In this document: positions 21,181 to 42,565 of the stretch, piece after piece
How the letters are laid out: the number at the start of each line of letters is the position of its first letter
Numbering within the stretch: the first letter of the stretch is position 1
Source of the DNA: Escherichia coli
Lineage (GTDB): Bacteria; Pseudomonadota; Gammaproteobacteria; Enterobacterales; Enterobacteriaceae
DNA length: 64,000 nt
Strand: one strand, 5' to 3'
Assembly (NCBI RefSeq): GCF_044324875.1
Contig: NZ_CP172185.1
The notes under the pieces: generated by a model
What the model was told of the DNA's origin: nothing
What the model saw: only the letters and a program-made list of their open reading frames with translations
The model's database searches: none
Program-made: the position numbers and the translations under genes

Positions 21181-21188
21181 AGGTAAAA

Positions 21189-21595: not shown

Positions 21596-22172
21596 TTCAA
21601 AATTCGACGAATTAACGATATTTGTCTGATTAATAATCAGACCGGATTAATGTTGGTGTATTTATTACACCAGCATTAATTTTCCTGAGGATGTATCTTC
21701 CTGTTCATTTAAGGTCAACTGCCTGACGTTTCTCTCCGAATATTCCATTATATTAATGTTGACTTGTTGACCAGGTGCGCCCTGTATGCTGGCATCAACT
21801 CTCTTTTAGACTGAACACGCCACTCAGTTTCCTCCCTTTGCGACGCAGCCTGCATTTACACTCAAACGGTTAAGATGATAAATGTGGTAAATCTGTTGGT
21901 ACTGACATAAAAACGTTTACGCCACAGGAACGGCCTGATCCACCGGTAACCCCATCGCCGACGTTCGAGTGCCAGTTAGAGTAACGCGCACAGATGACTG
22001 AATGCAGTGCCCTGGCAAAGAGGCCATCGTTCCTGTGACAACTGGCAGTCTTCGTTTAACTTCACTTAATTTGGCTCTTAGGGGGCTTACCGGACAGATG
22101 ACGTACTTACACCTGTTTAATTTTTCATCACTTATTGGGATGAACACCCATAACCATGGTAATGACTCCAAC

Positions 22173-22676
22173 TTATTGATAGTGTTTTATGTTCAGATAA
22201 TGCCCGATGACTTTGTCATGCAGCTCCACCGATTTTGAGAACGACAGCGACTTCCGTCCCAGCCGTGCCAGGTGCTGCCTCAGATTCAGGTTATGCCGCT
22301 CAATTCGCTGCGTATATCGCTTGCTGATTACGTGCAGCTTTCCCTTCAGGCGGGATTCATACAGTGGCCAGCCATCCGTCATCCATATCACCACGTCAAA
22401 GGGTGACAGCAGGCTCATAAGACGCCCCAGCGTCGCCATAGTGCGTTCACCGAATACGTGCGCAACAACCGTCTTCCGGAGCCTGTCATACGCGTAAAAC
22501 AGCCAGCGCTGGCGCGATTTAGCCCCGACATAGCCCCACTGTTCGTCCATTTCCGCGCAGACGATGACGTCACTGCCCGGCTGTATGCGCGAGGTTACCG
22601 ACTGCGGCCTGAGTTTTTTAAGTGACGTAAAATCGTGTTGAGGCCAACGCCCATAATGCGGGCAGTTGCCCGGCAT
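22173..22676 (-). CDS. insB: IS1 transposase InsB frame (made as InsAB by -1 frameshift)
   Basis: 167-aa ORF overlapping insA 3' end. Confidence 0.85.
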
Positions 22677-22870
22677 CCAACGCCATTCATGGCCATATCA
22701 ATGATTTTCTGGTGCGTACCGGGTTGAGAAGCGGTGTAAGTGAACTGCAGTTGCCATGTTTTACGGCAGTGAGAGCAGAGATAGCGCTGATGTCCGGCGG
22801 TGCTTTTGCCGTTACGCACCACCCCGTCAGTAGCTGAACAGGAGGGACAGCTGATAGAAACAGAAGCCAC
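22595..22870 (-). CDS. insA: IS1 protein InsA
   Basis: 91-aa ORF with zinc-finger CPSC...CSHC and HTH. Confidence 0.9.
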
Positions 22871-23396
22871 TGGAGCACCTCAAAAACACCATCATACACT
22901 AAATCAGTAAGTTGGCAGCATCACCCATGAACACCCATAACCATTTTGTGCGGCATGTTAATCCATTAAAACACCTTACTGATTGGCAAATCATCTTTAA
23001 TTATGACTCATGATAGTTTTATATTCTATTTATTATCATTTAAACTTGTTTTTTTACTAGTCCATTACACAACACATTAAGACTATTCCTAACACCTCAG
23101 GGCAAAGTTCCTGGCTAATATAAAATGCAAGTAAGAATTGAACGTTATATTGCCAATAACCTTATGAAACTGAATGTCTTTTTCTTCTTATCAAAAAAGC
23201 AATATTTTCATTTTTTGTAAATATTGACTTAACCATGGAATTCCTTTTCTGTTCACATATTGACACTCATCAGGAAAAAAACATAAATTTAAACCTAATC
23301 GAAATAATTAAAACTTAATCTCGTTTAACCTATATTGATATGTGCTACGTATCTTATTTACTTCCGATTTACTAAAGAAACTGAATGTACCTGTAA

Positions 23397-24008
<612 letters not shown>

Positions 24009-24082
24009 ACTCCAGGCAAGTTAGTTTTAAAAAATGACTCACAGGGACATCACGTCCTCAATTCAACTCGGGAAGAAAAGCA

Positions 24083-24670
24083 ATGAAAAAAAAGGTTCTG
24101 GCAATAGCTCTGGTAACGGTGTTTACCGGCATGGGTGTGGCGCAGGCTGCTGACGTAACAGCTCAGGCTGTAGCGACCTGGTCAGCAACAGCCAAAAAAG
24201 ACACCACCAGTAAGCTGGTTGTGACGCCACTCGGTAGCCTGGCGTTCCAGTATGCCGAAGGCATTAAAGGTTTTAACTCACAGAAAGGTCTATTTGACGT
24301 AGCTATCGAGGGTGACTCAACGGCTACCGCCTTTAAACTGACCTCACGTCTTATCACCAACACCTTAACCCAGTTGGATACCTCAGGTTCCACACTGAAT
24401 GTGGGCGTGGATTATAACGGCGCGGCAGTCGAAAAAACTGGCGATACCGTGATGATCGATACCGCCAACGGCGTACTGGGCGGCAACCTTAGCCCACTGG
24501 CTAACGGTTACAATGCCAGCAATCGTACCACCGCACAGGATGGTTTCACTTTCTCCATCATCAGCGGCACCACCAATGGTACCACCGCAGTAACCGATTA
24601 CAGCACTCTACCGGAAGGCATCTGGAGCGGCGACGTTAGCGTACAGTTCGACGCGACCTGGACCAGTTAA
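24083..24670 (+). CDS. ecpA: E. coli common pilus major subunit
   Basis: Signal peptide, pilin-like T/S-rich sequence, first gene after ecpR. Confidence 0.85.
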
Positions 24671-24685
24671 TCTCTCTGATGTACC

Positions 24686-24711
24686 AGCAGGGGTAGCCCC
24701 CCTGCTTTATT
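24686..24711 (+). terminator. Hairpin between ecpA and ecpB (partial terminator/attenuator)
   Basis: agcaggggtagcccccctgct followed by ttatt. Confidence 0.55.
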
Positions 24712-24727
24712 CCTGGACGGAATTGTT

Positions 24728-25396
24728 ATGAAAAAGCACCTTCTGCCTCTCGCTCTGCTGTTTTCCGGAATATCTCCGGCCCAGGCGCTGGATGTCGGCG
24801 ATATATCATCGTTTATGAACAGTGACAGCAGCACGCTGAGCAAAACGATCAAAAACAGTACCGACAGTGGTCGCCTTATCAATATCCGTCTCGAACGGCT
24901 CTCTTCACCGCTTGACGACGGGCAGGTTATCTCAATGGACAAGCCGGATGAGTTGCTACTCACTCCCGCCAGCTTGCTGCTACCCGCCCAAGCCAGCGAA
25001 GTGATCCGCTTCTTCTATAAGGGACCCGCAGATGAAAAAGAGCGCTACTACCGCATTGTCTGGTTTGATCAGGCCCTCAGTGATGCGCAGCGCGATAATG
25101 CCAACCGTAGCGCTGTGGCCACTGCTTCCGCCCGCATCGGCACCATTCTGGTCGTCGCCCCTCGCCAGGCGAACTACCACTTTCAGTACGCCAACGGCTC
25201 CCTGACAAATACAGGAAATGCGACGCTGCGGATCCTCGCCTACGGCCCCTGCCTGAAAGCCGCCAATGGTAAGGAGTGTAAAGAGAATTACTACCTGATG
25301 CCGGGCAAGTCGCGTCGTTTTACCCGCGTGGACACGGCGGATAACAAAGGACGGGTTGCACTTTGGCAGGGTGATAAGTTCATTCCCGTGAAATAG
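24728..25396 (+). CDS. ecpB: Pilus chaperone EcpB
   Basis: Signal peptide; operon position. Confidence 0.8.
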
Positions 25397-25421
25397 ATAG
25401 CTGTGCAGATGGATAACGACA

Positions 25422-27947
25422 ATGCCTTTACGACGGTTCTCCCCAGGACTGAAAGCCCAGTTTGCCTTCGGCATGGTCTTTTTGTTCGTTCAGCCCGATG
25501 CCAGCGCTGCTGACATAAGTGCGCAGCAAATAGGTGGGGTGATTATTCCGCAGGCCTTCAGTCAGGCGCTCCAGGACGGCATGAGCGTCCCGCTTTATAT
25601 TCATCTCGCCGGTAGCCAGGGTCGCCAGGACGATCAGCGAATCGGAAGCGCTTTTATCTGGCTGGATGATGGACAGCTACGCATCCGGAAAATACAGCTG
25701 GAAGAGAGTGAAGATAACGCCAGTGTCAGCGAACAAACTCGACAGCAGCTGATGGCTCTGGCGAACGCCCCGTTCAATGAGGCCCTTACCATCCCCCTGA
25801 CTGACAACGCGCAGCTGGATCTCAGCTTGCGCCAACTGCTGCTGCAGCTAGTGGTCAAGCGCGAAGCGCTGGGCACCGTACTACGCTCACGTAGCGAAGA
25901 CATCGGGCAGTCCAGTGTTAACACCCTCAGCAGTAATCTGAGCTATAACTTCGGCGTCTATAACAACCAGTTGCGTAACGGCGGGAGCAACACATCCAGC
26001 TATCTGTCGCTGAATAACGTTACTGCACTGCGCGAACATCACGTGGTGCTCGACGGCTCGCTGTACGGGATCGGTAGCGGTCAACAGGACAGTGAATTAT
26101 ATAAAGCGATGTATGAACGCGATTTTGCCGGTCACCGATTTGCCGGTGGAATGCTCGACACCTGGAACTTGCAGTCCTTAGGGCCGATGACCGCCATTTC
26201 AGCAGGGAAGATTTACGGCCTTTCCTGGGGAAACCAGGCCAGCTCCACCATCTTCGACAGCAGCCAGTCAGCCACGCCAGTGATCGCCTTTTTACCGGCG
26301 GCGGGCGAAGTACATCTCACCCGTGATGGGCGGCTATTAAGCGTTCAGAACTTCACCATGGGCAATCATGAAGTGGATACCCGGGGTCTACCGTACGGTA
26401 TTTACGATGTGGAAGTTGAGGTGATCGTTAACGGTCGCGTGATCAGCAAACGTACTCAACGGGTCAATAAGCTGTTTAGCCGGGGGCGCGGCGTCGGTGC
26501 ACCACTGGCGTGGCAGATATGGGGCGGTAGCTTTCATATGGATCGCTGGTCGGAAAACGGGAAAAAGACGCGACCAGCTAAAGAGAGTTGGCTGGCAGGT
26601 GCCTCGACCTCCGGCTCACTGAGTACGCTTAGCTGGGCGGCAACGGGATATGGATACGATAATCAGGCGGTGGGTGAAACCCGTCTGACGCTGCCGCTTG
26701 GGGGGGCGATCAACGTTAACCTGCAAAACATGCTGGCCAGTGACAGCTCATGGAGCAACATCGCCAGCATCAGCGCCACTCTACCGGGAGGCTTCAGTTC
26801 GCTGTGGGTTAACCAGGAAAAAACCCGCATTGGCAATCAATTGCGACGTAGCGATGCCGACAACCGTGCAATCGGCGGCACACTCAACCTGAACTCACTG
26901 TGGTCGAAGCTGGGTACGTTCAGCATCAGCTACAATGATGACCGCCGCTACAACAGCCATTATTACACGGCAGATTACTATCAAAGTGTCTACAGCGGTA
27001 CCTTTGGTTCGCTTGGCCTGCGGGCCGGTATTCAGCGCTATAACAACGGCGACAGCAGCGCCAATACAGGGAAATATATCGCTCTCGATCTCTCGCTACC
27101 ACTGGGCAACTGGTTTAGCGCAGGGATGACCCATCAAAACGGCTACACCATGGCAAACCTGTCAGCACGCAAACAGTTTGATGAAGGAACCATTCGCACT
27201 GTTGGTGCCAATCTGTCACGAGCCATCTCCGGCGATACCGGTGATGACAAAACCCTCAGCGGTGGGGCGTATGCACAGTTCGACGCTCGTTACGCCAGCG
27301 GAACGCTGAACGTTAATAGCGCGGCGGACGGCTACATCAATACCAATTTGACCGCCAACGGCAGCGTCGGCTGGCAGGGTAAAAACATCGCTGCCAGCGG
27401 GCGGACCGATGGCAACGCTGGGGTGATATTCGACACTGGCCTGGAGAACGATGGTCAGATCAGCGCCAAAATCAACGGGCGGATTTTCACGCTTAACGGC
27501 AAGCGTAACTATCTCCCGCTCTCTCCCTATGGAAGATATGAGGTGGAGTTGCAGAACAGCAAAAACTCACTCGACAGTTACGATATCGTCAGCGGTCGCA
27601 AAAGCCATCTGACTCTCTATCCAGGCAATGTCGCTGTCATTGAGCCAGAGGTGAAGCAGATGGTTACCGTCTCCGGTCGTATCCGTGCGGAAGACGGCAC
27701 ACTGCTGGCTAACGCACGGATTAACAACCATATCGGCCGAACCCGAACCGATGAAAACGGCGAGTTTGTCATGGACGTAGATAAGAAATACCCCACTATC
27801 GATTTTCGCTACAGTGGCAATAAAACCTGCGAAGTGGCACTGGAACTCAACCAGGCGCGCGGTGCCGTCTGGGTCGGTGATGTGGTCTGCAGCGGCCTCT
27901 CATCGTGGGCGGCGGTGACGCAGACAGGAGAAGAGAATGAGAGTTAA
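25422..27947 (+). CDS. ecpC: Outer-membrane usher EcpC (841 aa)
   Basis: Large beta-rich ORF with signal peptide. Confidence 0.85.
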
Positions 27948-29580
27948 CCTACTGATAGCGATGATAATATTTGCGCTAATCTGGCCTGCAACCGCGCTCA
28001 GAGCTGCAGTGAGCAAAACAACCTGGGCGGATGCACCGGCAAGCGAGTTTGTGTTTGTCGAAAACAACTCAGACGACAACTTTTTCGTCACGCCTGGCGG
28101 GGCGCTGGATCCGCGCCTGACCGGTGCCAACCGCTGGACCGGTTTAAAATACACTGGCTCAGGAACCATCTATCAACAAAGCCTCGGCTACATTGATAAC
28201 GGTTACAACACCGGCCTCTATACCAACTGGAAGTTTGATATGTGGCTGGAAAATTCGCCGGTTTCATCTCCTTTAACTGGCTTACGCTGCATCAACTGGT
28301 ACGCAGGGTGTAATATGACCACCAGTCTTATCCTGCCGCAAACCACCGACGCCAGTGGATTTTATGGCGCGACGGTGACCAGCGGCGGCGCGAAGTGGAT
28401 GCACGGCATGTTGTCAGACGCGTTTTACCAGTATATGCAACAAATGCCCGTCGGCAGCAGCTTTACAATGACCATCAATGCCTGCCAGACCTCAGTGAAC
28501 TATGACGCCAGCAGCGGCGCGCGTTGTAAGGATCAGGCCTCCGGAAACTGGTATGTTCGCAATGTCACCCATACAAAAGCAGCAAATCTGCGGTTGATAA
28601 ATACCCACTCGCTGGCGGAGGTGTTTATCAACAGCGACGGAGTACCGACTCTGGGCGAAGGGAACGCCGACTGCCGGACACAAACCATCGGCAGCCTTTC
28701 AGGATTAAGTTGTAAGATGGTTAACTATACCCTGCAAACAAACGGACTCAGCAACACCTCAATCCATATCTTCCCGGCGATCGCCAACTCGTCGTTAGCC
28801 TCGGCCGTCGGGGCGTACGATATGCAGTTCAGTCTGAATGGCAGTTCATGGAAACCGGTGAGCAATACTGCCTATTACTACACCTTCAACGAGATGAAGA
28901 GCGCAGACTCGATCTATGTTTTCTTCTCGAGCAACTTCTTTAAACAGATGGTGAACCTCGGGATCAGCGATATCAACACCAAAGATCTGTTCAACTTTCG
29001 CTTTCAGAACACCACATCACCGGAGTCTGGCTGGTATGAATTTTCTACCTCCAACACGCTGATTATCAAACCCCGTGATTTCAGCATCAGTATTATCTCC
29101 GATGAATATACTCAGACACCGTCGCGGGAGGGATATGTCGGCAGCGGCGAGTCGGCACTCGATTTCGGCTATATCGTAACCACCAGCGGTAAAACAGCTG
29201 CCGACGAAGTGCTGATCAAGGTGACCGGACCCGCGCAGGTGATTGGCGGGCGCTCCTATTGTGTCTTCAGCTCCGATGACGGTAAGGCGAAAGTACCGTT
29301 CCCGGCGACGCTTTCCTTTATTACCCGCAACGGAGCTACAAAAACCTACGATGCCGGGTGCGATGATAGCTGGCGGGATATGACCGATGCGCTGTGGCTG
29401 ACCACACCGTGGACTGATATCTCTGGCGAAGTGGGGCAGATGGATAAGACCACAGTCAAATTTTCGATTCCAATGGATAACGCCATTTCGCTGCGTACGG
29501 TAGATGATAACGGCTGGTTTGGCGAAGTCAGCGCTTCAGGAGAAATTCATGTTCAGGCGACGTGGCGTAACATTAACTAA
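27937..29580 (+). CDS. ecpD: Pilus tip adhesin EcpD (547 aa)
   Basis: Signal peptide; overlaps ecpC stop. Confidence 0.8.
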
Positions 29581-30259
29581 GGCCCTGCTGACAGCGGTCT
29601 GTATGCTGGCGGCACCTTTGACACAGGCGATTTCGGTCGGCAATCTGACATTTTCGCTGCCGTCCGAGACTGACTTTGTCAGCAAACGTGTAGTGAATAA
29701 CAACAAAAGCGCACGGATATACCGTATTGCCATCAGTGCTATTGATAGCCCGGGCAGCAGTGAATTGCGCACCCGACCGGTGGATGGTGAACTACTTTTC
29801 GCCCCCCGCCAGCTGGCGTTGCAGGCTGGTGAGAGCGAGTATTTTAAATTTTACTATCATGGTCCACAGGATAACCGCGAGCGCTACTACCGGGTCTCAT
29901 TTCGCGAGGTCCCCACTCGCAACCAGACAAGACGCAGCCCAACCGGCGGCGAGGTCAGCACGGAGCCGGTGGTGGTGATGGATACCATTCTGGTAGTACG
30001 ACCACGTCAGGTTCAGTTTAAATGGTCCTTCGACCAGGTGACAGGAACGGTAAGTAACACCGGCAACACGTGGTTTAAGCTACTGATTAAACCAGGATGT
30101 GATTCGACCGAAGAGGAAGGCGACGCCTGGTATCTACGTCCGGGAGACGTTGTTCATCAGCCTGAGTTACGTCAGCCGGGGAATCATTATCTGGTCTATA
30201 ACGACAAATTCATTAAGATTAGCGATTCCTGTCCGGCTAAGCCCCCTTCGGCGGACTAA
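29549..30259 (+). CDS. ecpE: Second pilus chaperone EcpE (start set at MFRRRGVTL; track ORF starts at 29504)
   Basis: Signal peptide; resembles EcpB (YYRVSF..., NTGNT motifs). Confidence 0.75.
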
Positions 30260-30571
30260 GACTTATCCATCGGTCGAGGGAAGAACTCCACCTCAGAGCC
30301 CCAAAAATCGTTTAAATGATGTGGAAGCGATCGTCAATATCACCTGTAACGATGGGCTTTCTCATATGCACACAATAGTGTTCAGGAGACACGGAAAGGT
30401 ACCAGGCAGCCTGCTAACGAGTGGTTTATTCACGAATTAGTACGTAAAATCGGTAACGGCTGGAAATCATTCAATACTCACACTATCGAAAGTTCCCCAG
30501 CCAACCGCGGTACGTTCTTACATACGATGTACCGCTGTTCTCTTTACGATTTATAGCTGTACTGGTGAATT

Positions 30572-30901
30572 ATGAGCAATCTGAATCCATGCATGACGTG
30601 TGGTGCCTGTTGTGCATTTTTCCGCGTCTCTTTTTACTGGGCCGAAGCCGACGATGCTGGCGGTACCATTCCCGCCAGGCTCACTGAACAAATATCCCCT
30701 TTTCACCGATGCATGAGCGGTACCAATCAGAAAAACCCCCGATGTATTGCCCTTGCAGGAACACCGGGCAAAAATGCCTGCTGCACGATATATAAAAATC
30801 GATCGTCCACGTGCAGAGAATTCGCCATGTCTGGTGAGAACGGAGTCGTCAATGAGGCTTGCAATCGTGCAAGAGCTAAATACGGGCTGACACCGTTATA
30901 A
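30572..30901 (+). CDS. ykgJ: Cys-rich YkgJ-family putative zinc/iron-chelating protein
   Basis: CMTCGACC ... CCTIY ... CREF motifs; hairpin-T run terminator downstream. Confidence 0.8.
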
Positions 30902-31149
30902 ATATGCAATAATTAATTGCACTGCCCCGCCAGCTATAATCGCGGGGCTTCGTTTTTCAGGGATAACAAAACCCGAAACTTCTTCCATCTGCCAGCAACA
31001 ATGCCTCTTCCTCTATAGTGTTCTCCGGATCTACAGCATCCTGAAGTAGCGCGATGTACTCATTGGCTATCTGCATCAGAAAGTTAAAAACAATGTTTTT
31101 AACCTATAAAAATGGCGCTGTATTTGCGCCATTTTTATCATTCAATGCA

Positions 31150-31764
31150 TTATCTGTTTGAGCCTAAAGGGATCTCAGGGTCTGGCTCATGAGTAATTCT
31201 GTTTCGTAAATCTCTGCGAATAATTTCAATGGACCAGAACCAGACTAAATGTCCAAAAATTTCAGAAACATTCTCATACCACGGGAGATCAAACAGAGGT
31301 GGCGTCAGTCCCATGAGAGGGAATGAAATCATATGAACAAAAAGTTGGGCTAAAGCACCTGCCAGTAAGCCCTGCCAGAGTTTAATTTTTGGAAATACTT
31401 CAGCGACCACACAATAACCGACAGCAAACACTATCGAAAAGATAATGTGCGTAACACCAACCCAGTTAAAGACATGCCCGGCAAAGGTATAAACAGCCGC
31501 ATTGGGATCTGTCAGCCCCAACCAGTCTCGAAGAAAAATATACGGAGGATTGAGAAAATTACGGGAGCAATCAATTTGCCCAGCAGCCCTGATTAATGAT
31601 TCCGGGCCACACGCTGCATTAAACATATCCACCGGGCTACGTGGCGGCAATGGAACTTCAGCCCCCCACTTCACAAATGCGGAAACAACGCCAGCAATCA
31701 GCCCAATGAATGCAGCAAGACCATAACGTCTGCGGTTCGGTGGAGTTTGTTCAAATATATTCAT
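31150..31764 (-). CDS. yagU: DUF1440 inner-membrane protein YagU
   Basis: 204-aa hydrophobic ORF. Confidence 0.8.
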
Positions 31765-32169
31765 ATCTACCCTGCTTGTACCATTATGTTATACACCTCT
31801 TCAGGAGTATTCATAAAACAAGGCAAATGTAAAGAACTGTATTGTTTTGTATAATGCAATGGTGACTAATCGCCAATTAATATAAGCACCATCATTTCTC
31901 CCTATTTTTATGTTAGAAGTGACAAAGATTTGTAGGGTGATGTAGAGCTGACAATCACAGGTTTCCTTATCGGTTTTTGCATCGCACAACTAAAGCAATA
32001 AACGAGCTCCCGTCATCGGCGAATATGAATTAATTAGCCGGGCTCATAGCTGCATTCGCGTTTTAAGAATAATCCTCCTGCTCTCACCGACTATGCTTAA
32101 CGTTTAAAAAAGCATCAGCACTCTCGCAACGCTCTCTTATTTTCCCCTTTAGAATACCGGAGGCCTGGT

Positions 32170-32859
32170 ATGAGCAACCAAGGCGAATACCCCGAAGATA
32201 ATCGGGTTGGGAAGCACGAGCCGCACGATTTTAGTTTGACCCGTCGCGATCTGATTAAAGTCAGCGCCGCAACGGCGGCGACCGCCGTGGTTTATCCTCA
32301 TTCTACGCTTGCAGCAAGCGTTCCGGCAGCTACACCCGCGCCAGAGATAATGCCCCTGACACTTAAGGTGAACGGCAAAACCGAGCAGTTGGACGTTGAT
32401 ACCCGAACCACGCTACTGGACGCTTTGCGTGAAAATCTGCTTCTGATCGGTACCAAGAAAGGTTGCGATCACGGGCAGTGCGGAGCCTGTACCGTGCTGG
32501 TCAATGGTCGCAGGCTTAATGCCTGCCTGACGCTTGCAGTCATGCATCAGGGGGCCGAGCTCACCACCATTGAAGGCCTGGGTTCACCAGAGAATCTTCA
32601 CCCCATGCAGGCGGCCTTTATCAAGCATGATGGCTTCCAGTGCGGCTACTGCACCTCCGGGCAAATTTGCTCATCAGTAGCGGTGCTAAAAGAGATTCAG
32701 GACGGCATTCCCAGTCACGTCACGGTCGATTTGGTTTCCCCTCCAGAAAGAACTGCCGATGAGATCCGTGAACGTATGAGCGGCAACATCTGTCGCTGTG
32801 GTGCATACGCTAACATCCTTGCCGCCATTGAAGATGCTGCGGGGGAGATAAAATCATGA
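32170..32859 (+). CDS. paoA: Periplasmic aldehyde oxidoreductase, 2Fe-2S subunit
   Basis: Tat motif TRRDLIK; 2Fe-2S cysteine motifs CDHGQCGAC and CGYC...CRC. Confidence 0.9.
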
Positions 32860-33812
32860 AGGCGTTTACCTATGAACGAGTGAACACCCCGGCCGAGGCG
32901 GCACTTAGCGCTCAGCGCGTACCCGGCGCAAAATTTATCGCTGGCGGGACCAATCTGCTGGACCTGATGAAGCTGGAAATTGAAACGCCAACCCACCTTA
33001 TCGATGTGAACGGGCTCGGGCTCGATAAGATTGAAGTGACCGACGCGGGTGGGCTGCGCATCGGCGCACTGGTACGGAACACCGACCTGGCAGCTCACGA
33101 GCGCGTGCGTCGTGATTACGCGGTACTCTCCCGCGCCCTGCTCGCTGGCGCGTCTGGTCAGTTACGTAATCAGGCAACCACCGCAGGTAATCTGCTCCAG
33201 CGCACGCGCTGCCCCTATTTTTACGACACCAATCAGCCCTGCAATAAGCGCCTGCCCGGGAGCGGCTGCGCGGCACTTGAAGGCTTTAGCCGTCAGCACG
33301 CGGTGGTAGGCGTAAGCGAAGCCTGCATTGCCACCCATCCGAGCGATATGGCGGTCGCAATGCGGTTGCTGGATGCGGTGGTGGAAACCATCACGCCGGA
33401 GGGAAAGACTCGCAGTATCACACTGGCTGATTTTTATCACCCTCCGGGAAAAACGCCGCACATTGAAACCGCCCTGCTTCCCGGTGAGCTTATCGTTGCG
33501 GTGACGTTACCTCCGCCGCTCGGCGGAAAACATATTTACCGTAAGGTGCGCGATCGCGCCTCCTACGCCTTTGCCCTGGTATCGGTCGCAGCGATTATTC
33601 AGCCTAACGGCAGCGGGCGCGTCGCGCTGGGCGGAGTAGCACATAAGCCCTGGCGCATTGAGGCTGCGGATGCTCAGCTATCCCAGGGGGCGCAGGCCGT
33701 GTATGACGCGCTGTTCGCCAGCGCCCATCCCACCACTGAAAACACCTTTAAACTCCTGTTGGCGAAGCGAACGCTTGCCTCCGTACTGGCTGAAGCGAGG
33801 GCACAGGCATGA
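32856..33812 (+). CDS. paoB: Aldehyde oxidoreductase FAD-binding subunit
   Basis: CO-dehydrogenase-flavoprotein-like ([11 protein letters not shown]). Confidence 0.9.
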
Positions 33813-36007
33813 AATTTGATAAACCCGCAGGGGAAAACCCGATTGATCAGCTGAAGGTTGTCGGTCGTCCCCATGACCGCATCGACGGACCGCTGAAAAC
33901 TACCGGCACGGCACGCTACGCCTACGAATGGCATGAAGAAGCCCCCAACGCCGCCTATGGTTATATCGTCGGTTCCGCCATTGCCAAAGGATGCCTCACC
34001 GCCCTCGATACGGACGCCGCGCAAAAAGCGCCGGGCGTACTGGCTGTCATTACCGCCAGTAACGCCGGGGCACTCGGCAAAGGCGACAAAAACACCGCCA
34101 GGCTGTTAGGCGGCCCCACTATTGAGCACTATCATCAGGCCATTGCGCTGGTAGTGGCCGAGACCTTCGAACAGGCACGAGCGGCGGCCTCGCTGGTGCA
34201 GGCGCACTATCGCCGTAATAAAGGAGCTTACTCCCTGGCGGACGAGAAACAGGCCGTCAGTCAGCCGCCGGAAGACACGCCCGATAAAAATGTTGGTGAC
34301 TTTGACGGGGCTTTCACCTCCGCTGCGGTGAAGATTGATGCTACCTACACGACCCCGGACCAGAGCCATATGGCGATGGAACCGCATGCCTCGATGGCCG
34401 TCTGGGATGGAAATAAGCTTACCCTCTGGACCTCAAATCAGATGATTGACTGGTGCCGCACCGATCTGGCAAAAACGCTGAAAGTGCCCGTGGAGAATGT
34501 GCGTATTATCTCCCCGTATATCGGTGGAGGGTTTGGCGGCAAGCTGTTCCTGAGAAGCGATGCGCTGCTGGCGGCCCTCGCCGCCCGTGCGGTGAAACGT
34601 CCGGTTAAAGTGATGCTCCCCCGCCCCACTATTCCCAATAACACAACGCACCGCCCCGCCACCCTTCAGCACCTGCGTATCGGTGCCGACCAGAGCGGGA
34701 AAATCACTGCTATCTCACATGAAAGCTGGTCCGGAAACCTGCCCGGCGGCACGCCGGAAACGGCGGTACAGCAAAGCGAATTTCTTTACGCAGGGGCGAA
34801 TCGTCATACAGGCCTGCGGCTCGCCACGCTTGATTTGCCGGAAGGGAACGCCATGCGTGCGCCCGGCGAAGCCCCCGGTCTGATGGCGCTCGAAATCGCG
34901 ATCGACGAACTGGCGGAAAAAGCGGGCATCGATCCCGTCGAGTTTCGCATCCTGAATGACACTCAGGTTGACCCCGCCGACCCGACGCGCCGCTTCTCTC
35001 GCCGTCAGCTTATCGAGTGCTTGCGCACCGGAGCGGATAAATTTGGCTGGAAGCAGCGCAACGCCACACCCGGACAGGTACGCGACGGGGAGTGGCTAGT
35101 CGGCCACGGTGTTGCGGCGGGCTTTCGCAATAATCTGCTGGAAAAATCGGGTGCGCGGGTTCACCTAGAACAAAACGGCACCGTTACCGTGGAAACGGAC
35201 ATGACCGATATTGGCACTGGCAGCTACACCATTCTGGCCCAGACGGCAGCGGAAATGCTTGGCGTACCGCTGGAGCAGGTTGCGGTTCACCTCGGCGATT
35301 CCAGTTTCCCGGTTTCTGCGGGTTCTGGTGGACAATGGGGCGCGAATACCTCCACCTCCGGCGTTTACGCCGCCTGTGTGAAGCTTCGCGAAATGATTGC
35401 CTCGGCAGTCGGGTTTGATCCTGAGCAGTCGCAGTTTGCCGACGGCAAGATTACCAACGGTACCCGAAGCGCCATGCTACATGAGGCCACCGCAGGCGGC
35501 AGACTGACAGTGGAAGAGAGCATTGAATTCGGAACACTGAGCAAGGAGTACCAGCAATCGACCTTTGCCGGGCATTTTGTGGAGGTCGGAGTGCATAGCG
35601 CGACGGGAGAAGTTTGGGTCCGGCGTATGCTCGCCGTGTGCGCAGCGGGGCGCATTCTGAATCCGAAAACTGCACGCAGCCAGGTCATTGGCGCGATGAC
35701 TATGGGCATGGGCGCGGCACTGATGGAGGAGCTGGTGGTAGATGACCGTTTGGGCTACTTCGTTAATCACGATATGGCGGGGTATGAGGTGCCGGTTCAT
35801 GCGGATATCCCAAAACAGGAGGTGATTTTCCTGGATGATACCGACCCCATATCCTCCCCGATGAAGGCCAAAGGTGTCGGTGAGCTGGGCCTGTGCGGCG
35901 TGAGCGCGGCTATCGCCAACGCGGTGTATAACGCCACCGGTATTCGGGTACGGGATTATCCCATCACTCTGGATAAGCTGCTCGATAAGCTGCCGGATGT
36001 GGTTTAA
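33809..36007 (+). CDS. paoC: Aldehyde oxidoreductase molybdopterin-binding subunit (732 aa)
   Basis: Xanthine-dehydrogenase-family molybdopterin domain; overlaps paoB stop. Confidence 0.9.
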
Positions 36008-36016
36008 GGAGGAACA

Positions 36017-36970
36017 ATGTCATACCCACTTTTTGACAAAGACGAGCACTGGCATAAGCCAGAGCAGGCGTTTCTCACCGATGACCACCGGACCATTCTG
36101 CGCTTCGCCGTAGAGGCGCTAATGTCCGGTAAAGGAGCGGTGCTGGTGACGCTGGTGGAAATACGCGGCGGCGCGGCGCGCCCGCTCGGGGCTCAGATGG
36201 TGGTGCGCGAAGATGGTCGTTACTGCGGTTTTGTCTCTGGCGGCTGCGTGGAGGCCGCTGCCGCTTTTGAAGCGCTGGAGATGATGGGCTCAGGCCGCGA
36301 TCGCGAAATTCGCTATGGCGAAGGTTCGCCGTGGTTTGACATCGTTCTGCCCTGCGGCGGTGGGATCACGCTGACGCTCCATAAACTACGCTCGGCACAG
36401 CCTCTGCTCGCCGTGCTGAACCGCCTGGAACAGAGAAAACCGGCGGGTCTGCGCTACGATCCGCAAGCACAATCGCTGGTGTGCCTGCCCACGCAAACCC
36501 GGACAGGCTGGAATCTCAATGGCTTTGAGGTGGGGTTCAGGCCATGCGTCAGGCTGATGATTTACGGACGTTCTCTTGAGGCGCAGGCAACCGCGAGTCT
36601 TGCAGCAGCCACAGGCTATGACAGCCATATCTTCGATCTTTTTCCGGCCTCAGCCAGCGCTCAGATCGATACCGATACGGCGGTCATTTTGCTGTGCCAT
36701 GATCTCAACCGGGAGCTGCCAGTGTTGCAGGCCGCGCGAGAAGCAAAACCCTTTTATCTCGGCGCATTGGGCAGCTATCGAACCCACACTTTACGTCTGC
36801 AAAAGCTCCACGAGCTGGGATGGTCCAGGGAGGAGACAGCGCAAATCCGGGCACCCGTCGGGATATTCCCCAAAACCCGGGATGCGCATACTCTGGCACT
36901 CTCCGTGCTGGCAGAAGTCGCCGCTGTACGTCTCCGTCAGGAGGATTCATGCCTGCCCCCATCGTCCTGA
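36017..36970 (+). CDS. paoD: XdhC-family molybdenum cofactor insertion chaperone
   Basis: XdhC/CoxI family; last gene of pao operon. Confidence 0.85.
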   Translation: MSYPLFDKDEHWHKPEQAFLTDDHRTILRFAVEALMSGKGAVLVTLVEIRGGAARPLGAQMVVREDGRYCGFVSGGCVEAAAAFEALEMMGSGRDREIRYGEGSPWFDIVLPCGGGITLTLHKLRSAQPLLAVLNRLEQRKPAGLRYDPQAQSLVCLPTQTRTGWNLNGFEVGFRPCVRLMIYGRSLEAQATASLAAATGYDSHIFDLFPASASAQIDTDTAVILLCHDLNRELPVLQAAREAKPFYLGALGSYRTHTLRLQKLHELGWSREETAQIRAPVGIFPKTRDAHTLALSVLAEVAAVRLRQEDSCLPPSS

Positions 36971-37056
36971 TCCTCGCGGCGGGGCGTGGGGAGCGCTTCC
37001 TCACCTCCGGGGGAAATACCCATAAATTAAGAGAAAAATCTGCAGTAGCCGTTTAA
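36949..37056 (+). pseudogene. 35-codon remnant of a MobA/MocA-like molybdopterin nucleotidyltransferase gene
   Basis: MPAPIVLILAAGRGERF (NTP-transferase LAAGxGxR motif) then unrelated tail and stop; ATG overlaps paoD 3' end; hairpin terminator at about 37085..37110. Confidence 0.45.
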
Positions 37057-37148
37057 GAAAATCACCTAAATCGTTTAAAAGAGCGCCCAACCCATAGTGG
37101 GCGCTTATCGCCTTGTGTAACTTATTCAGCAACGCGCGCCTCGCCGGA

Positions 37149-38342
37149 CTAAAGCGCACCGGCCTTCTGGCGTGCGGTAACAAAGGTCAGTACGCCAGCG
37201 CAAAGGAGCAGCACGCTACTCATAGCAAACGTGCTCTGCCAGCCAAGGCGGTCAAACACAATGCCTCCTGCCGTTGATCCAAGGGCGATGGCGAGCCGAA
37301 TCACCGCGACCATGAGCCCGCCTCCGGCTTCGGCGTTGTCAGGCAACGTACGCGCAATCCATGTCCACCATCCGGTTGGCGCGGCGGTGGCCAGCATGCC
37401 CCAGAGTCCTAACAGCAGCGAGACCGTCCAGACGTGATGCCCGGTAAGCATCAGACCGATGGCAATGACGGCCATCAGTCCGGGTATGGCCATCAGCGTG
37501 GGGTAGAATTTTCTGTTGAGAAATGCCGAAACAACCAGCGTGCCAATAAAACCGGCCACGCCGATAATCAGCAAAATCGACGACAAGCCTAAGGAATTAA
37601 CCCGTGTCACCGACTCCAGAAACGGGCGCACATAGGTGAATAGCGCAAACTGCCCCATGAAAAACAGGCCACAAGCTATCATGCCGACCACAACCATGCG
37701 GCGGCTAAATAAGCGGAATACCGCGCCACATGAAGTGTGGCTTTTATTCGCATCCATGCTTGGCAGGCTGATGCACTGCCAGATAAAGGCGACAACCGCG
37801 ATGGGCACCAGGCACAAGAAAGCGCCTCGCCATCCGACCGTAGCCCCCAGATAGCTTCCCAGCGGTGCGGCCACGACCGTCGCCAGCGCATTACCGGCGT
37901 TGAAAATTGCCAGCGCACGCGTGACCTGATGCTGCGGCACCAGACGAATCGCCGTTGCCGCTGACATCGACCAGAATCCGCCAATAGCCACACCAATCAT
38001 CGCACGACCGACCATATACATCAGATAACTGGAAGCCAGCGCAATAATAAGCCCCGATACGGCCATCAGAACCGTCATCCCCAGCAGCAGGAACTTACGA
38101 TTCATCTTTCCAGCTAGCGTTGAAAGCGTCAGGCTGGTCAGAACCGCCAGCGCGCCGGAGATAGCAATCCCCTGCCCTGCCAGCCCCTCCGTCACGCCTA
38201 AATCGCGGGTAATCGGCGTGAGCAGGCTGACGGGCATGAATTCAGAAGCAATCAGCACAAACACGCACAGGGTCATGGCAAAAATACCGCCCCAGTATGC
38301 GCGCTGATGATGAGGTGATAGTGTTTGGCTTAGTGTCGACAT
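37149..38342 (-). CDS. MFS-family transporter (397 aa)
   Basis: About 12 hydrophobic segments. Confidence 0.75.
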   Translation of the reverse strand: MSTLSQTLSPHHQRAYWGGIFAMTLCVFVLIASEFMPVSLLTPITRDLGVTEGLAGQGIAISGALAVLTSLTLSTLAGKMNRKFLLLGMTVLMAVSGLIIALASSYLMYMVGRAMIGVAIGGFWSMSAATAIRLVPQHQVTRALAIFNAGNALATVVAAPLGSYLGATVGWRGAFLCLVPIAVVAFIWQCISLPSMDANKSHTSCGAVFRLFSRRMVVVGMIACGLFFMGQFALFTYVRPFLESVTRVNSLGLSSILLIIGVAGFIGTLVVSAFLNRKFYPTLMAIPGLMAVIAIGLMLTGHHVWTVSLLLGLWGMLATAAPTGWWTWIARTLPDNAEAGGGLMVAVIRLAIALGSTAGGIVFDRLGWQSTFAMSSVLLLCAGVLTFVTARQKAGAL

Positions 38343-38417
38343 AGTGAAATTTCACAAAGATCAGGATAAAAGCCACCAGCCTATGGCCGGTGGCTTTGCA
38401 TCAATTCAGGAGAGGTT

Positions 38418-39575
38418 TTATTTCAGTTTGGTCTGGAAAAATTGTTCGAACTTCGCGAAAGGTATTTTTCCGGCCACGTTATCGTACAGGTCCACGTGAT
38501 TTGCCCCTGGTACCACCACCAGCTCTTTGTCTTTACTGCCAACCGCCTTGTAAGCATCTTCAGCAAAATAGCGTGAATGCGCTTTCTCACCGGTCACAAT
38601 CAGCGTCGGGATGGTGATTTCACTGGCGTAGCTCAACAGCGGCATATTCATAAATGACAGCGGCATCGTTGCCGTCCACGCCCCGGTAGAGTTAACGGAA
38701 CGTTCGTGGAAGCCGCGCGGCATGCGATAGTAGTCAAAGAACTCTTTCAGTACCGGATGAGGATTTGCCGGCAGCGTTTCTGGCAGAATGCGCTCGCCCG
38801 CACTGACCTTGCCGTTGCTGTCGACATTAATATCATGACCACCGTGAGCGAACGTTCCGCTCTGCGCATCCTTCCAGCGCTGTTCATTCAGATATTGCAG
38901 AACAGCACGACGGTCGGCGGTAGAATAACGGTCTTTGCCATCCCCCACACCATGCCCCATCGCCCGGCTCATGTCATACATCACGCTGGTAGCTACCGCT
39001 TTAACGCGGGTATCCATCGCCACGTCGTTCAGCGCCATGCCGCCCCAGCCACAAATACCGAGCAGCCCGATACGGTTGCGATCTACCTCTTTTTGCAGCC
39101 CTAAGAAATCCACCGCCGCGCTGAAATCTTCAGTGTTGATATCCGGTGAGGCGACGTTTCGCGGATAGCCGCCGCTTTCCCCGGTGTAAGAAGGATCGAA
39201 CGCCAGGGTAACAAACCCTCGTTCCGCCAGCGTCTGCGCATACAGGCCGCTGGATTGCTCTTTCACCGCGCCAAATGGCCCACTGACCGCAATCGCCGCC
39301 AGCTTGCGATCGCCACGGTCTTTAGGCAGGTAAAGATCGCCCACTAAGGTGATGCCATATCGGTTCGGGAACGAGACTTTACGGTGATCGACTTTCTGGC
39401 TCTCGGCGAACGTTTTATCCCATTTATCTGTCATGGACACAGGGGCATTAGGATTGGTTGAATCAGCATAACTCATTGTCGTGACTCCACTTAATGATGC
39501 GAAAAGCAGCATGGTCGGCATCGCGGTTTTTAGCGTGCGGGTGAAGGCTTTCATAAAAATCCCCATAAAAAACAA
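38418..39575 (-). CDS. Secreted alpha/beta-hydrolase fold protein (385 aa; start uncertain)
   Basis: Signal peptide; GICGWGG nucleophile elbow; paralog of 18025..18945. Confidence 0.65.
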   Translation of the reverse strand: MFFMGIFMKAFTRTLKTAMPTMLLFASLSGVTTMSYADSTNPNAPVSMTDKWDKTFAESQKVDHRKVSFPNRYGITLVGDLYLPKDRGDRKLAAIAVSGPFGAVKEQSSGLYAQTLAERGFVTLAFDPSYTGESGGYPRNVASPDINTEDFSAAVDFLGLQKEVDRNRIGLLGICGWGGMALNDVAMDTRVKAVATSVMYDMSRAMGHGVGDGKDRYSTADRRAVLQYLNEQRWKDAQSGTFAHGGHDINVDSNGKVSAGERILPETLPANPHPVLKEFFDYYRMPRGFHERSVNSTGAWTATMPLSFMNMPLLSYASEITIPTLIVTGEKAHSRYFAEDAYKAVGSKDKELVVVPGANHVDLYDNVAGKIPFAKFEQFFQTKLK

Positions 39576-39740
39576 CAGAGAGATACAGGTTTCCGACGGA
39601 CAACGCTGCGGTGCTTTACTTTGATGGGGTCATTATAGTGAGCAGAATTAGTGCTGATTAGTGGGCGATTAATGCTAAGATTAATACCATATTGTTATAA
39701 ATTAATGCGGAGATTGCCGGCATGAAGGGGGGATGTTTCA

Positions 39741-40625
39741 ATGGCGAAAAGGGAGAACTACAACGAGCTGTACCTGTTTATGCAGGTGGTGCGGGAAGGC
39801 AGCTTTACCGCAGCGGCTCAGCGGCTGGGTCTTGCTCAGTCAGGAGTCAGCCGTTCTGTTCGCGAGCTTGAAGAAAGGCTGGGCGTCCAGCTGCTAGTGC
39901 GCACCACGCGTAAACTGTCGCTGACACAAGCAGGCGAGCAGCTCTACCAGAAGACGGCATCTGGATTTGAAATGTTAGATCTTGGGCTTGCCACGCTGGC
40001 GCACTATCGAGAGACGCCCTCCGGCACGGTGCGTATCAATGCCAGCCAGCACGCGATTGATAAATGCCTGCTGCCAAAGCTGGCGGTATTTAAACAGAGA
40101 TATCCTGATATCCGGCTTGAACTGATAAATGAGAGCCGGTTCGTCGATATCATCGAGGAAAGATTCGATGCAGGTGTCCGCCTGGGGCCTGAAGTCGGCC
40201 AGGGTATGGTCGCGGTACGCATCACGCCCGATATGGAGATGGCAATTGTGGGGACTCCGGAACATTTTCGTCGCTATGGTTTTCCGCAAACCCCGGCGGA
40301 TTTAAAGGCGCATCCCTGTATCGCCTATCAGTTTGCCGACGGCAGCGTATACCAGTGGGAACTCAATCAGGATGATAAAAAAATCACTCATCGCCCTGAA
40401 GGGCAATGGGCCCTATCCGACAGCTATATGGAAGCAGAAGCCGCCCGGCTGGGCCTCGGATTGGCCTATGTTCCTGTTGAACTGGTCGCGGATGATTTAG
40501 AACACGGTAAGCTTATCAGGGTGTTGCAGCGTTACAGCCTGCGAATGGAGGGATTGTTTCTCTATTACCCTCATCGCAACGTCTCCCCCGCCCTGCGGAT
40601 GGTCATTGATACATTGAAAATCTGA
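39741..40625 (+). CDS. LysR-family transcriptional regulator
   Basis: LysR HTH (FTAAAQRLGLAQSGVSRSVRELEERL); close paralog of the IS-split LysR gene. Confidence 0.8.
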   Translation: MAKRENYNELYLFMQVVREGSFTAAAQRLGLAQSGVSRSVRELEERLGVQLLVRTTRKLSLTQAGEQLYQKTASGFEMLDLGLATLAHYRETPSGTVRINASQHAIDKCLLPKLAVFKQRYPDIRLELINESRFVDIIEERFDAGVRLGPEVGQGMVAVRITPDMEMAIVGTPEHFRRYGFPQTPADLKAHPCIAYQFADGSVYQWELNQDDKKITHRPEGQWALSDSYMEAEAARLGLGLAYVPVELVADDLEHGKLIRVLQRYSLRMEGLFLYYPHRNVSPALRMVIDTLKI

Positions 40626-40839
40626 ACGTTAACAACGACCGACTCTTCACTGTGCAAAATTGTGTCAGGTAGTCCCTCTGCGTTCAATTCCAGGGTCTGC
40701 TTTGAGCGAGAAAGAGGGGACTATCCAGCAATGGAGATCACCCAAAAGAAAAAACCACCTGACTCCCTCGACAACCTTCATCCGGGCATTTAGCCTCAAT
40801 CAACATGTTTATATCTGTCAGGTTACTTCATGATGAAAA

Positions 40840-40989
40840 CTGATCATCATCGTTGTTTTTGTTGCAATAGTAGAATACGCGTATTTATTCCTCCATCTCT
40901 ATTAATAACGGCAATAAACTGTTCACTTCACTGATATTTAAAATATGTATCCTTTTCAAGCTGTTCAGCGGCGTAAGAAAAAGTATTAA
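40840..40989 (+). pseudogene. Decayed remnant of a ykgR-like gene fused to the 3' end of an rpmJ2-like gene
   Basis: 40840..40905 encodes LIIIVVFVAIVEYAYLFLHLY* with no start codon; 40945..40989 encodes MYPFQAVQRRKKKY* (compare RpmJ2 ...[11 protein letters not shown]); flanks align with 20768..20880 and 21558..21710. Confidence 0.5.
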
Positions 40990-41306
40990 TTATGAATTCG
41001 ACGATTTAACCATTTCAGTCTGATTGGTAATCATCTATGATTAATGCTGGTCTATTGATTACGCCAGCATTAACCGCTTAGGGATGTATTCTTCCTGTCC
41101 ATATAGCCCTCGAAAAAGAGAGAAAATAAAACTGTGTCCAATATTAATTTACCACTTCAGACCGAAACATCGGTGGAATTAGCAGGACGACTGGTACAGA
41201 AGGATGGTATAGCGTCATTTGTCGGGCATTCCATTGCCATAATAATGACAATTTTGAAGCAATAGCCGTGCTTCTTGATCATGTCTTAAAAATTATACCA
41301 TGAGCC

Positions 41307-41537
41307 TTATGAGGCATCATTTTTACTGACTGGTGTTAACTTTGCTATCATATAAACTCTGTTCTTAAAAAACGCGCCCAGAATTTTATATGATTTTCCT
41401 TGTTTTGCTGCCTGTAAAGAAATTTCTTTTTCAGTGCTGTCGATGGTTGAACCGACGGCAGTAATCGTTTTGGCGACGCTACTGAAGGATATTAAAGACA
41501 GTGTAACCACAACAATTAAAGAATAGATAATATTCAT
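41307..41537 (-). CDS. DUF1471 (YhcN/BhsA-like) small periplasmic protein
   Basis: Signal peptide then ...ITAVGSTIDSTEKEISLQAAKQGKSYKIL...; AGGAG ribosome-binding site. Confidence 0.55.
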   Translation of the reverse strand: MNIIYSLIVVVTLSLISFSSVAKTITAVGSTIDSTEKEISLQAAKQGKSYKILGAFFKNRVYMIAKLTPVSKNDAS

Positions 41538-41752
41538 GCTAATTCTCCTGACAATTGAGAGGATGAGTTTAATATACAAAGGCATTAAATATGAGTCATG
41601 TTTACTCCCTGTGAAAATAACCTTACTGTAATTAAACCTTCATCTCCTTCGGGGTGAGCAATGCAAAATATAATGCATCTTGCTATGCAAAACAGTGGAT
41701 ATAAATTTTCCTCGCGACCTATTTAATAAAACGTGAATATAAAAGTTAGTCT

Positions 41753-42304
41753 TCAGTTTGCAGATGCAGTAGGTCTGATGGTAATTTCGGTTGTATCAAC
41801 GCTTTCGGGAGATTCAATAATATGCCTTACAGCACGGGCAATATCCGCAGGTTGAAGTGCAACAGAACGGTAGGCGTCCATTGACTTCATGGTTTCCACA
41901 TGGGTAATGGTTGAAGCCAGTTCACTTTCTACAACCCCAGGATTTACGCAGGTCACACGGATTTTCGAGCTTTCCTGCCGTAAGCCATCCGAAATAGCCC
42001 GTACTGCAAATTTTGATGCGCAATAGACTGCGCCTGTGGGCACAACAGAAAGGGCACCAATAGAACCAAGATTGATTATCTGACCGGAACCCTGTGCTTC
42101 CATCACCGGAAGTACAGCGCCAATTCCCCAAAGTACACCTTTGATATTCACGTCAATAGTGAGCTCCCATTCATCTTGTTTTCCTGCTGCAAGCGGTGAA
42201 AGCGGCATAACGCCCGCATTATTGATAAGAACATCAACTCGCCCCCAGCTATCCAGCGCTACTTGCACGAAATCTGCCATGGACTGTCGGTCTGTGACAT
42301 CCAA
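41753..42304 (-). pseudogene. 5'-truncated short-chain dehydrogenase/reductase gene
   Basis: Has NNAG and YxxxK (YCASKFA) motifs but no N-terminal TGxxxGxG Rossmann segment; 5' end abuts the integrase remnant. Confidence 0.55.
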
Positions 42305-42475
42305 CTTGCATTTTCAGAAATGGGAGGCTGGGAGTCTATCGAAATGGTTCGTCGATATGCTCACCTTGCACCTAATCACCTTACCGAACACGCACGGCAA
42401 ATAGACTCAGTCCTGAACCCATCGGTCCCAAATTTGTCCCAGTCAAAAAAAAAGGAAGGTACTAATTATGTGTAA
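42263..42475 (+). pseudogene. C-terminal remnant of a tyrosine integrase gene beside thrW
   Basis: ...[21 protein letters not shown]... (catalytic Tyr region); ends 15 bp from the tRNA 3' end. Confidence 0.65.
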
Positions 42476-42489
42476 CTTATTGATTTAAA

Positions 42490-42565
42490 TGGTGCCGATA
42501 ATAGGAGTCGAACCTACGACCTTCGCATTACGAATGCGCTGCTCTACCAACTGAGCTATATCGGC
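42490..42565 (-). tRNA. thrW: tRNA-Thr (anticodon CGU)
   Basis: 76-nt cloverleaf GCCGATATAGCTCAGTTGGTAGAGCAGCGCATTCGTAATGCGAAGGTCGTAGGTTCGACTCCTATTATCGGCACCA. Confidence 0.9.

Follow-up and report, generated by a model that had tools for sequence, protein, structure and literature searches.

Does the DNA between paoD and the tRNA gene thrW in this Escherichia coli chromosome descend from one island that entered at the tRNA and then decayed, or does it join pieces of separate origin? The initial annotation of the 64,000-nucleotide stretch analyzed here (the window; RefSeq assembly GCF_044324875.1, contig NZ_CP172185.1) took positions 36949-42565 for an eroded genomic island, and part of its premise is well founded, thrW being an integration hotspot (PMC7545054) that harbors CP4-6 in K-12. 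Judged from its sequence and that of related genomes, the interval is very probably a composite of three things and not a single island integrated at thrW. The sole thrW-integrated relic within it appears to be 171 nt long (42305-42475), and the remainder from a truncated oxidoreductase gene to paoD (37030-42306) is in all likelihood an accessory chromosomal segment, an old neighbor of thrW and not island cargo.

At the tRNA end, thrW (42490-42565, minus strand) is intact and shows no differences from the K-12 gene; ARAGORN calls it tRNA-Thr(CGT), CGU in RNA letters, and Rfam scores it at 71.8 bits. It is the only Rfam match between 36500 and 43000 at a permissive threshold, and the AT-rich part at 40660-41750 gave neither an sRNA nor a riboswitch. 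Converging on its 3' end on the plus strand is a tyrosine integrase remnant of the SfV/P22 family (42305-42475), which comprises the last 56 codons and the stop and accounts for 171 of the 1119 nt of the gene, or 15%. The stub that the initial annotation placed at 42263-42475 is real, but its first 42 nt (42263-42304) are antisense to the neighboring oxidoreductase gene and integrase DNA starts only at 42305; with 56 of 372 codons present and antisense sequence upstream, it is not a full gene in another frame. Against the intact integrase of the KFu021 prophage (372 aa), the stub aligns with residues 319-372 at 91% amino-acid identity, and it keeps the RRYAHL region of the catalytic Tyr; most of the catalytic domain and the N-terminal DNA-binding domains are absent, a search of NCBIfam gave no match, and the PGAP label reads "integrase, missing N-terminus". 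At the DNA level, its identity to the int 3' end with attP is 97-98% for phi458, SfV, SfI, SfII and SfIV, and about 80% for P22. Intact prophages show the same convergent geometry, as in KFu021, where int stands against thrW, and thrW is here the attB/attL host of a lost prophage.

Abutting the stub is an SDR-family oxidoreductase pseudogene (41753-42306, minus strand), whose 5' truncation had been recognized from the start. It retains residues 58-240 of a 240-aa protein, 97% identical to the intact SDR of strain 88-3493, and NCBIfam SDR profiles align with it only from about profile position 50-71 onward. The YxxxK string (here YCASK) is kept; codons 1-57 are missing. This N-terminal part of an SDR is the site of the Rossmann NAD(P)-binding glycine motif. 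Homology to SDR runs up to 42306 and homology to integrase begins at 42305, the dinucleotide CT being common to both sides, and base-level alignments to 88-3493, O157 and RIVM_C039629 reveal no filler DNA at this joint. The same joint is present at 98-100% identity in 19 of 5426 complete E. coli genomes, whose carriers span several serotypes, and in strain 2012C-4221, which is nearly identical, PGAP has annotated the same pseudogenes. A 70-codon ORF (42263-42475) does cross the joint, and one might see in it a functional chimeric gene, or in the fusion an artefact of assembly or sequencing. Neither is credible to any practical degree, and both were rejected: the 19 genomes that share the identical joint were assembled independently, and the ORF opens with a TTG inside antisense SDR, encodes just the last 15% of the integrase, and so cannot contain the other catalytic-domain residues, while PGAP calls both of its halves pseudogenes.

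From this anatomy we infer an order of events and a deletion in one step. A temperate phage with an SfV/P22-family integrase would have inserted itself at the thrW 3' end, placing int beside the tRNA in convergent orientation. A single illegitimate deletion through the 2-nt CT microhomology, reaching from about int codon 317 to SDR codon 58, would then have removed all other prophage DNA together with the distal att, the adjacent LysR2 gene (full-length counterpart of yagP in K-12) and SDR codons 1-57, sparing thrW and leaving the 171-nt stub fused to a beheaded SDR. Having lost the distal att and most of int, such a scar cannot excise. The deletion could instead have proceeded in several steps, or have struck a prophage that was already degraded; given carriers of several serotypes, its presence in different lineages could also be due to transfer by homologous recombination and not to inheritance of the joint.

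The segment on the far side of the joint appears to carry older decay products of its own, together with an apparently intact metabolic unit. That unit, a LysR-hydrolase-MFS module as the initial annotation had it, consists of three intact ORFs, in which a LysR-family regulator (LysR1; 39741-40625, plus strand; NCBIfam YafC-like, E 1e-56, below the equivalog cut-off) diverges from the other two. The second gene (38418-39575, minus strand) encodes an alpha/beta-fold hydrolase of PA2218/YcjY-like type with a hydrophobic N-terminus, matching PDB 2hdw (PA2218) at E 2e-125 and 5xb6 (YcjY) at E 2e-43 as well as Pfam PETase-like and Abhydrolase_1. The third (37149-38342, minus strand) encodes a NepI-like MFS transporter (NCBIfam NepI, E 1e-85) whose 288 bits fall short of the cut-off of 584, which makes it a paralogue and not an equivalog. 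Next to paoD, the truncated MocA-like start had also been called correctly: 36949-37029 (plus strand) holds the first 27 codons of a MocA-like cytidylyltransferase, 27 homologous codons against a full-length NTP-transferase of about 190 aa. The full gene (182-197 aa) follows paoD in 18 other Enterobacteriaceae loci located by tblastn and ORF calling (L007-L031); the homologue in L007 matches TIGR03310 MocA at E 7.5e-24, and nucleotide homology of the stub to L007 stops at 37029. In the other genera reached by a contig scan with PaoD, the LysR-hydrolase-MFS module does not adjoin paoD.

Between the module and the SDR fragment lie two smaller features. The first is a 76-aa ORF with a hydrophobic N-terminus (41307-41537, also given as 41307-41585; minus strand), described earlier as a DUF1471 gene. 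The ORF itself is real and conserved in Escherichia, but its resemblance to DUF1471/BhsA is weak and stays below cut-off, with NCBIfam BhsA at E 8.8e-4 (19.8 bits; cut-off 90) and Pfam YdgH_BhsA-like (PF07338) at i-E 0.052. Its 84 homologues, all from Escherichia or Shigella and none with a precomputed Pfam domain, are too alike for building a stronger profile. The second is a decayed paralogue of ykgR-ykgM-ykgO (40837-41105, plus strand), and here the ykgR/rpmJ2 remnant noted earlier is borne out in full. The last 23 codons of ykgR (40837-40905) and 48 nt up to 40953 run straight into the final 12 codons of ykgO (rpmJ2), which start at 40953 and are followed by downstream DNA. Identity is 90% to 20765-20882 and 75% to 21559-21711 of the window, within or beside the true ykgR-ykgM-ykgO at 20732-21595, and PGAP annotates a partial YkgR at the remnant.

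Whether this segment arrived with a thrW-integrated element can be asked of genomes in which the tRNA is differently occupied. O157:H7 has the order thrW, lambdoid remnant, att2, P4-like element, att3, LysR2, SDR and on to paoD; the third and last att copy stands between the P4-like element and LysR2, and the whole segment therefore lies outside the integrated elements. The ptwF flank of K-12 is homologous to the outer flank of att3 in O157 and leads into yagP, which is the C-terminus of LysR2. Strain 88-3493 has an empty thrW followed immediately by LysR2, a full SDR, the small ORF, ykgR', LysR1, the hydrolase, the MFS gene and paoD, with no integrase, and thrW stands directly against the LysR2-side flank in 948 of the 5426 genomes. 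Among divergent Escherichia, a set of few genomes (the PaoD contig scan yielded other genera and no Escherichia outgroups), LysR2, SDR, the small ORF and ykgR are found on the thrW side, directly after the empty tRNA in L038 and past a small island in 6EVA. Sliding identity against 88-3493 and O157 falls, to 93-95%, only in the AT-rich and mostly non-coding part, and the profile has no clear recombination block. As to att sites in the window itself, a 32-nt pattern with up to 3 mismatches detected the thrW 3' end only once, blastn-short with thrW plus 40 nt returned just a 13-nt match at 37114-37126 to the phage-side, non-tRNA flank (E 0.22, chance level), and general repeat finding gave short chance repeats only.

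The segment is not core in all E. coli, and its absences can be counted directly. The LysR-hydrolase-MFS module is kept in 912 of the 5426 complete genomes (17%) and the small ORF with SDR in 401, and a K-12-type yagP deletion is found in about half (2684). Homology to K-12 ends in the mocA stub, at 37025. There, a 6.1-kb deletion with TTATG microhomology has joined yagP to the mocA stub, and because gene fragments persist on both sides, K-12 must have lost the segment by deletion. This would be a later event, independent of the one at the integrase, that stripped the segment from K-12 and about half of E. coli.

These comparisons bear most heavily on the idea that all of 36949-42565 is one eroded thrW-integrated island, with the integrase stub as its own integrase and the module as surviving cargo. 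Much of what first suggests it is real: an integrase remnant (albeit 15% of the gene) and a tRNA hotspot do form a border, the segment is missing from K-12 and most E. coli, several pseudogenes lie in the interval, and GC content is atypical (34-42% at 40500-41750; 55-59% across the MFS and hydrolase genes). Atypical GC and patchy presence do not discriminate, however, because deletion of backbone would yield the same pattern. Against a single island stand the missing distal att in the window, the place of the segment, or its remnant, past the final att copy of both O157 and K-12, the segment fragments that flank the deletion in K-12, and an integrase that belongs to SfV/P22-type phages, whose genomes are without these genes. 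The segment is also present where thrW is unoccupied and no integrase is found, being complete beside the empty tRNA in 88-3493 and represented there by its genes in L038. We regard the one-island account as very improbable. What survives of the earlier reading is that the integrase stub derives by decay from an element formerly at thrW, that decay products and a small metabolic module are indeed present, and that the segment varies among strains; an island spanning the whole interval is not supported, and the module is better seen as old neighboring chromosome than as surviving cargo. Given its GC and accessory distribution, 37030-42306 may alternatively have been gained earlier without att.

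A different boundary is suggested by ykgR. The LysR1-hydrolase-MFS module may be part of a unit of about 20 kb, flanked by two copies of the ykgR 3' end in direct orientation (20765-20882 and 40837-40953), that includes ykgM/ykgO and the ecp and pao operons as well, and that was either gained at ykgR by E. coli sensu stricto or lost in divergent Escherichia through ykgR x ykgR' recombination; its limit would be ykgR and not thrW. The direct repeat measures 118 nt at 90% identity, the block is absent and a single full-length ykgR present in L035-L038 and in the complete genome 6EVA, and these single-ykgR genomes, a type seen in only 3 of the 5426 genomes labeled E. coli, share the ykgR|ykgO' joint found at 40953 of the window. 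No mobility genes are associated with the unit, however, the outgroup sample is of few genomes, and the sequence favors neither direction of the event: in single-copy ykgR, A-like and B-like sites are intermingled, and a search for a crossover point among the diagnostic sites of L038 and L035 gave none that was clear. We consider the unit a tentative proposal, somewhat against the balance of probability, and its specific form, in which the ecp-pao block with the module at its end was gained by one ykgR crossover or recurrently lost via ykgR x ykgR', a little less likely again. Either is compatible with the composite reading, which it would complement and not replace. If correct, ykgR would delimit an indel unit not remarked on before, one carrying ecp (common pilus) and pao (periplasmic aldehyde oxidoreductase).

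On the composite reading, the thrW-paoD region would be flanking chromosome eroded by independent deletions, one (int'|'SDR) found in 19 genomes and another in about half of E. coli, and the yagP pseudogene of K-12 would be the product of the 6.1-kb deletion. This should aid the correct delimiting of thrW-integrated elements and counsels caution, in that a variable gene near a tRNA is not always island content. Beyond annotation the significance is small; the thrW locus here is a known type of scar at a known hotspot, an instance of ordinary genome plasticity of a kind already known.

Comparison with known occupants of thrW places the scar more exactly. The closest are the prophages SfV, SfI, SfII, SfIV and phi458, which lie at thrW by proA with the same att site and the same convergent int-thrW geometry, and to which the 97-98% nucleotide identity extends across the int 3' end and the attP arm; in the window, by contrast, int is reduced to 171 of 1119 nt, all other phage genes and the distal att are missing, and the phage side stops at a deletion joint in a host SDR gene. 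CP4-6 of K-12 (ptwF, yagP) occupies the same tRNA hotspot and has the same outer flank, a thrW-derived repeat and then LysR2, and at both loci deletions cut into neighboring host genes. It differs in its 34 kb, in carrying another integrase, intF, at its distal end and in keeping both att copies; K-12 has lost the SDR-to-MFS segment, whereas the window keeps that segment and has lost LysR2 and the SDR 5' end. O157:H7, with a lambdoid remnant and a P4-like element in tandem (which we take to be Sp1/Sp2 or CP-933H/I), has the same int 3' end by thrW, identical over 42317-42400 with homology from 42317 into the proA side, and the same downstream backbone of LysR2, SDR, small ORF, ykgR', LysR1, hydrolase, MFS and paoD. 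Unlike the window, which has lost all of these, it retains about 23 kb of two elements, three att copies, and intact LysR2 and SDR genes.

The window is E. coli, and across the interval from the end of paoD to thrW (36949-42565) it is ~99% identical to strain 2012C-4221, in which PGAP annotates the same pseudogenes. After paoC (33809-36007) and paoD (36017-36970) come a MocA-like stub of 27 codons (36949-37029), genes for a NepI-like MFS transporter (37149-38342, minus) and a PA2218-like alpha/beta hydrolase (38418-39575, minus), and a LysR regulator gene, LysR1 (39741-40625, plus), these last three forming a unit that appears intact from its sequence. A C-terminal piece of ykgR (40837-40905) comes next; at 40953 it adjoins the final 12 codons of a ykgO/rpmJ2 copy. 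Beyond them, a small ORF (41307-41537, minus) encodes a protein with a hydrophobic N-terminus and is followed by an SDR (short-chain dehydrogenase) gene that lacks codons 1-57 (41753-42306, minus). A tyrosine-integrase remnant of 56 C-terminal codons (42305-42475, plus) stands between this gene and thrW (42490-42565, minus), after which come proA and proB. The feature list of the initial annotation was essentially correct, apart from two refinements: the integrase remnant is real but the first 42 nt of the ORF drawn for it are antisense SDR sequence, and the small ORF is present but its DUF1471 label is backed only by sub-threshold matches.

The same annotation took the whole interval for an island integrated at thrW, and here four tests point the other way. 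A second repeat of the thrW 3' end, proposed there as the mark of a distal att site, was sought in the window and not found. O157:H7 (ATCC 43894) carries three att copies (thrW, one ahead of a P4-like integrase, and a 27-nt copy past the P4-like element), and past the third the order is LysR2 (a second LysR gene, deleted in the window), full SDR gene, small ORF, ykgR fragment, LysR1, hydrolase, MFS gene, and paoD. The outer flank of ptwF in K-12 is the same as that of the third O157 copy and runs into yagP, which corresponds to ~111 codons at the C-terminal end of LysR2. In strain 88-3493 thrW is unoccupied and the whole segment begins right after it, without any integrase, and 948 of 5426 genomes contiguously match a synthetic “empty site” query in which proA-thrW is joined to the outer flank. 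Divergent Escherichia genomes likewise have LysR2, the SDR gene, the small ORF, and ykgR on the thrW side, directly after thrW in one (L038) and beyond a small island in strain 6EVA. Taken together, the att order in O157 and K-12, the empty site in 88-3493, and the divergent Escherichia layout indicate that the segment between paoD and the integrase stub (37030-42306) is chromosome distal to every integrated element, not an island integrated at thrW.

The stub itself is phage-derived: with the 14 nt up to thrW, it matches the 3' end of int and the attP arm in phi458, SfV, SfI, SfII, and SfIV at 97-98% identity, and P22 at ~80%. In strain KFu021 a complete lambdoid prophage ends in an intact 372-aa integrase of its type, which adjoins thrW in the same convergent geometry, and the stub peptide aligns with residues 319-372 of that protein, the RRYAHL tyrosine region included. 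Base-level alignment ends SDR homology at 42306 and begins integrase homology at 42305, so the deletion that made the joint is clean, its two sides sharing the dinucleotide CT with no filler DNA between them. The SDR fragment comprises residues 58-240 of an intact 240-aa protein and so is without the N-terminal stretch in which SDRs have their cofactor-binding motif. The joint recurs, at 98-100% identity and in several serotypes, in 19 of the 5426 complete E. coli genomes, which rules out an assembly artefact and shows it to be real, inherited or else transferred. With the anatomy, joints, and counts of the thrW-paoD interval directly observed, we infer the order of events and a single step of loss: an SfV/P22-type phage would have integrated into thrW, and one illegitimate deletion, starting inside int and ending inside the SDR gene, would have taken out LysR2 and the 5' part of the SDR gene along with the prophage and its distal att site. 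What is left is an immobile scar beside an intact thrW.

The segment looks island-like because it is accessory: the MFS-hydrolase-LysR1 unit is kept in 912 of 5426 genomes and the small-ORF/SDR part in 401. K-12 and 2684 of 5426 genomes have in common one specific junction, at a TTATG microhomology, which fuses the LysR2 C-terminus to the mocA stub and removes 6.1 kb; the gene fragments left on both sides mark it as a loss, not a lack of gain. Two independent breakpoints nearly coincide at 37021-37030, where the pao-side end of this deletion lies <10 nt from the end of mocA-stub homology to full-length genes. At 40.5-41.75 kb, an AT-rich stretch with little coding sequence, GC is low; it is high in the MFS and hydrolase genes, and neither deviation indicates integration at thrW.

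The segment also shows older decay. The mocA stub represents the start of a MocA-like gene of 182-197 aa that follows paoD in 18 loci of other Enterobacteriaceae, which would fit with PaoABC using a cytosine dinucleotide cofactor. The ykgR and ykgO fragments derive from a paralogue of the true locus, ykgR-ykgM-ykgO (20732-21595), that has lost ykgM and most of ykgO. The two ykgR 3' ends form direct repeats of 118 nt and 90% identity (20765-20882 and 40837-40953) around a block of ~20 kb (20883-40836) holding ykgM, ykgO, ykgL, IS1, ecpR-ecpE, ykgJ, yagU, paoABCD, the mocA stub, and the MFS, hydrolase, and LysR1 genes. In the divergent Escherichia loci (L035-L038 and 6EVA) there is one full ykgR and the block is missing as a unit, a type found in only 3 of 5426 complete “E. 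coli” genomes; the block may have been gained by the genomes that carry it or lost from those that lack it.

Other variation surrounds these features. The full IS1 between ykgL and ecpR (22158-22925), 98.6-98.8% identical to K-12 IS1B/IS1C, is absent from the otherwise near-identical 2012C-4221. Judged from translations, 13204-16817 holds a putative IS21-family element with an istA-like transposase (548 aa, 14364-16010) and an istB-like protein (332 aa, 13592-14590), interrupting an apparent LysR-family regulator gene, whose pieces lie at 13204-13563 and 16011-16817. 2012C-4221 is without it and has IS110 and a filamentous-phage-like insert (Zot-domain protein, replication endonuclease, GspD-like secretin) inside an aldo/keto reductase gene. 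Upstream of the true ykgR, 16942-20260 appears, again from translation, to encode a second LysR regulator, a 306-aa putative alpha/beta hydrolase that looks akin to that at 38418-39575, and an intact 380-aa putative NADH:flavin oxidoreductase, of which 2012C-4221 has only a frameshifted remnant. At thrW, some strains (RIVM_C039629; L006, 13791-20171) have in place of the small-ORF/SDR part a small defence-type island, between the ykgR fragment and a slightly longer int stub, with an AbiEi/AbiEii toxin-antitoxin pair and a 1069-aa RNA-directed DNA polymerase. The 6EVA mini-island (L039, 930-4260), with LysR2 on one side and on the other a degraded integrase at thrW, encodes a manganese catalase, two ferritin-like proteins, and a general stress protein.

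It is common for prophages to be eroded by deletions that reach the genes beside them, and the thrW-paoD interval offers nothing new in kind. One by-product alone is mildly novel: the ~20-kb ecp-pao block with its LysR1-hydrolase-MFS module between direct ykgR repeats. thrW is a textbook integration hotspot (PMC7545054), with annotated elements in K-12 (CP4-6/ptwF/yagP) and annotated tandem elements in O157.
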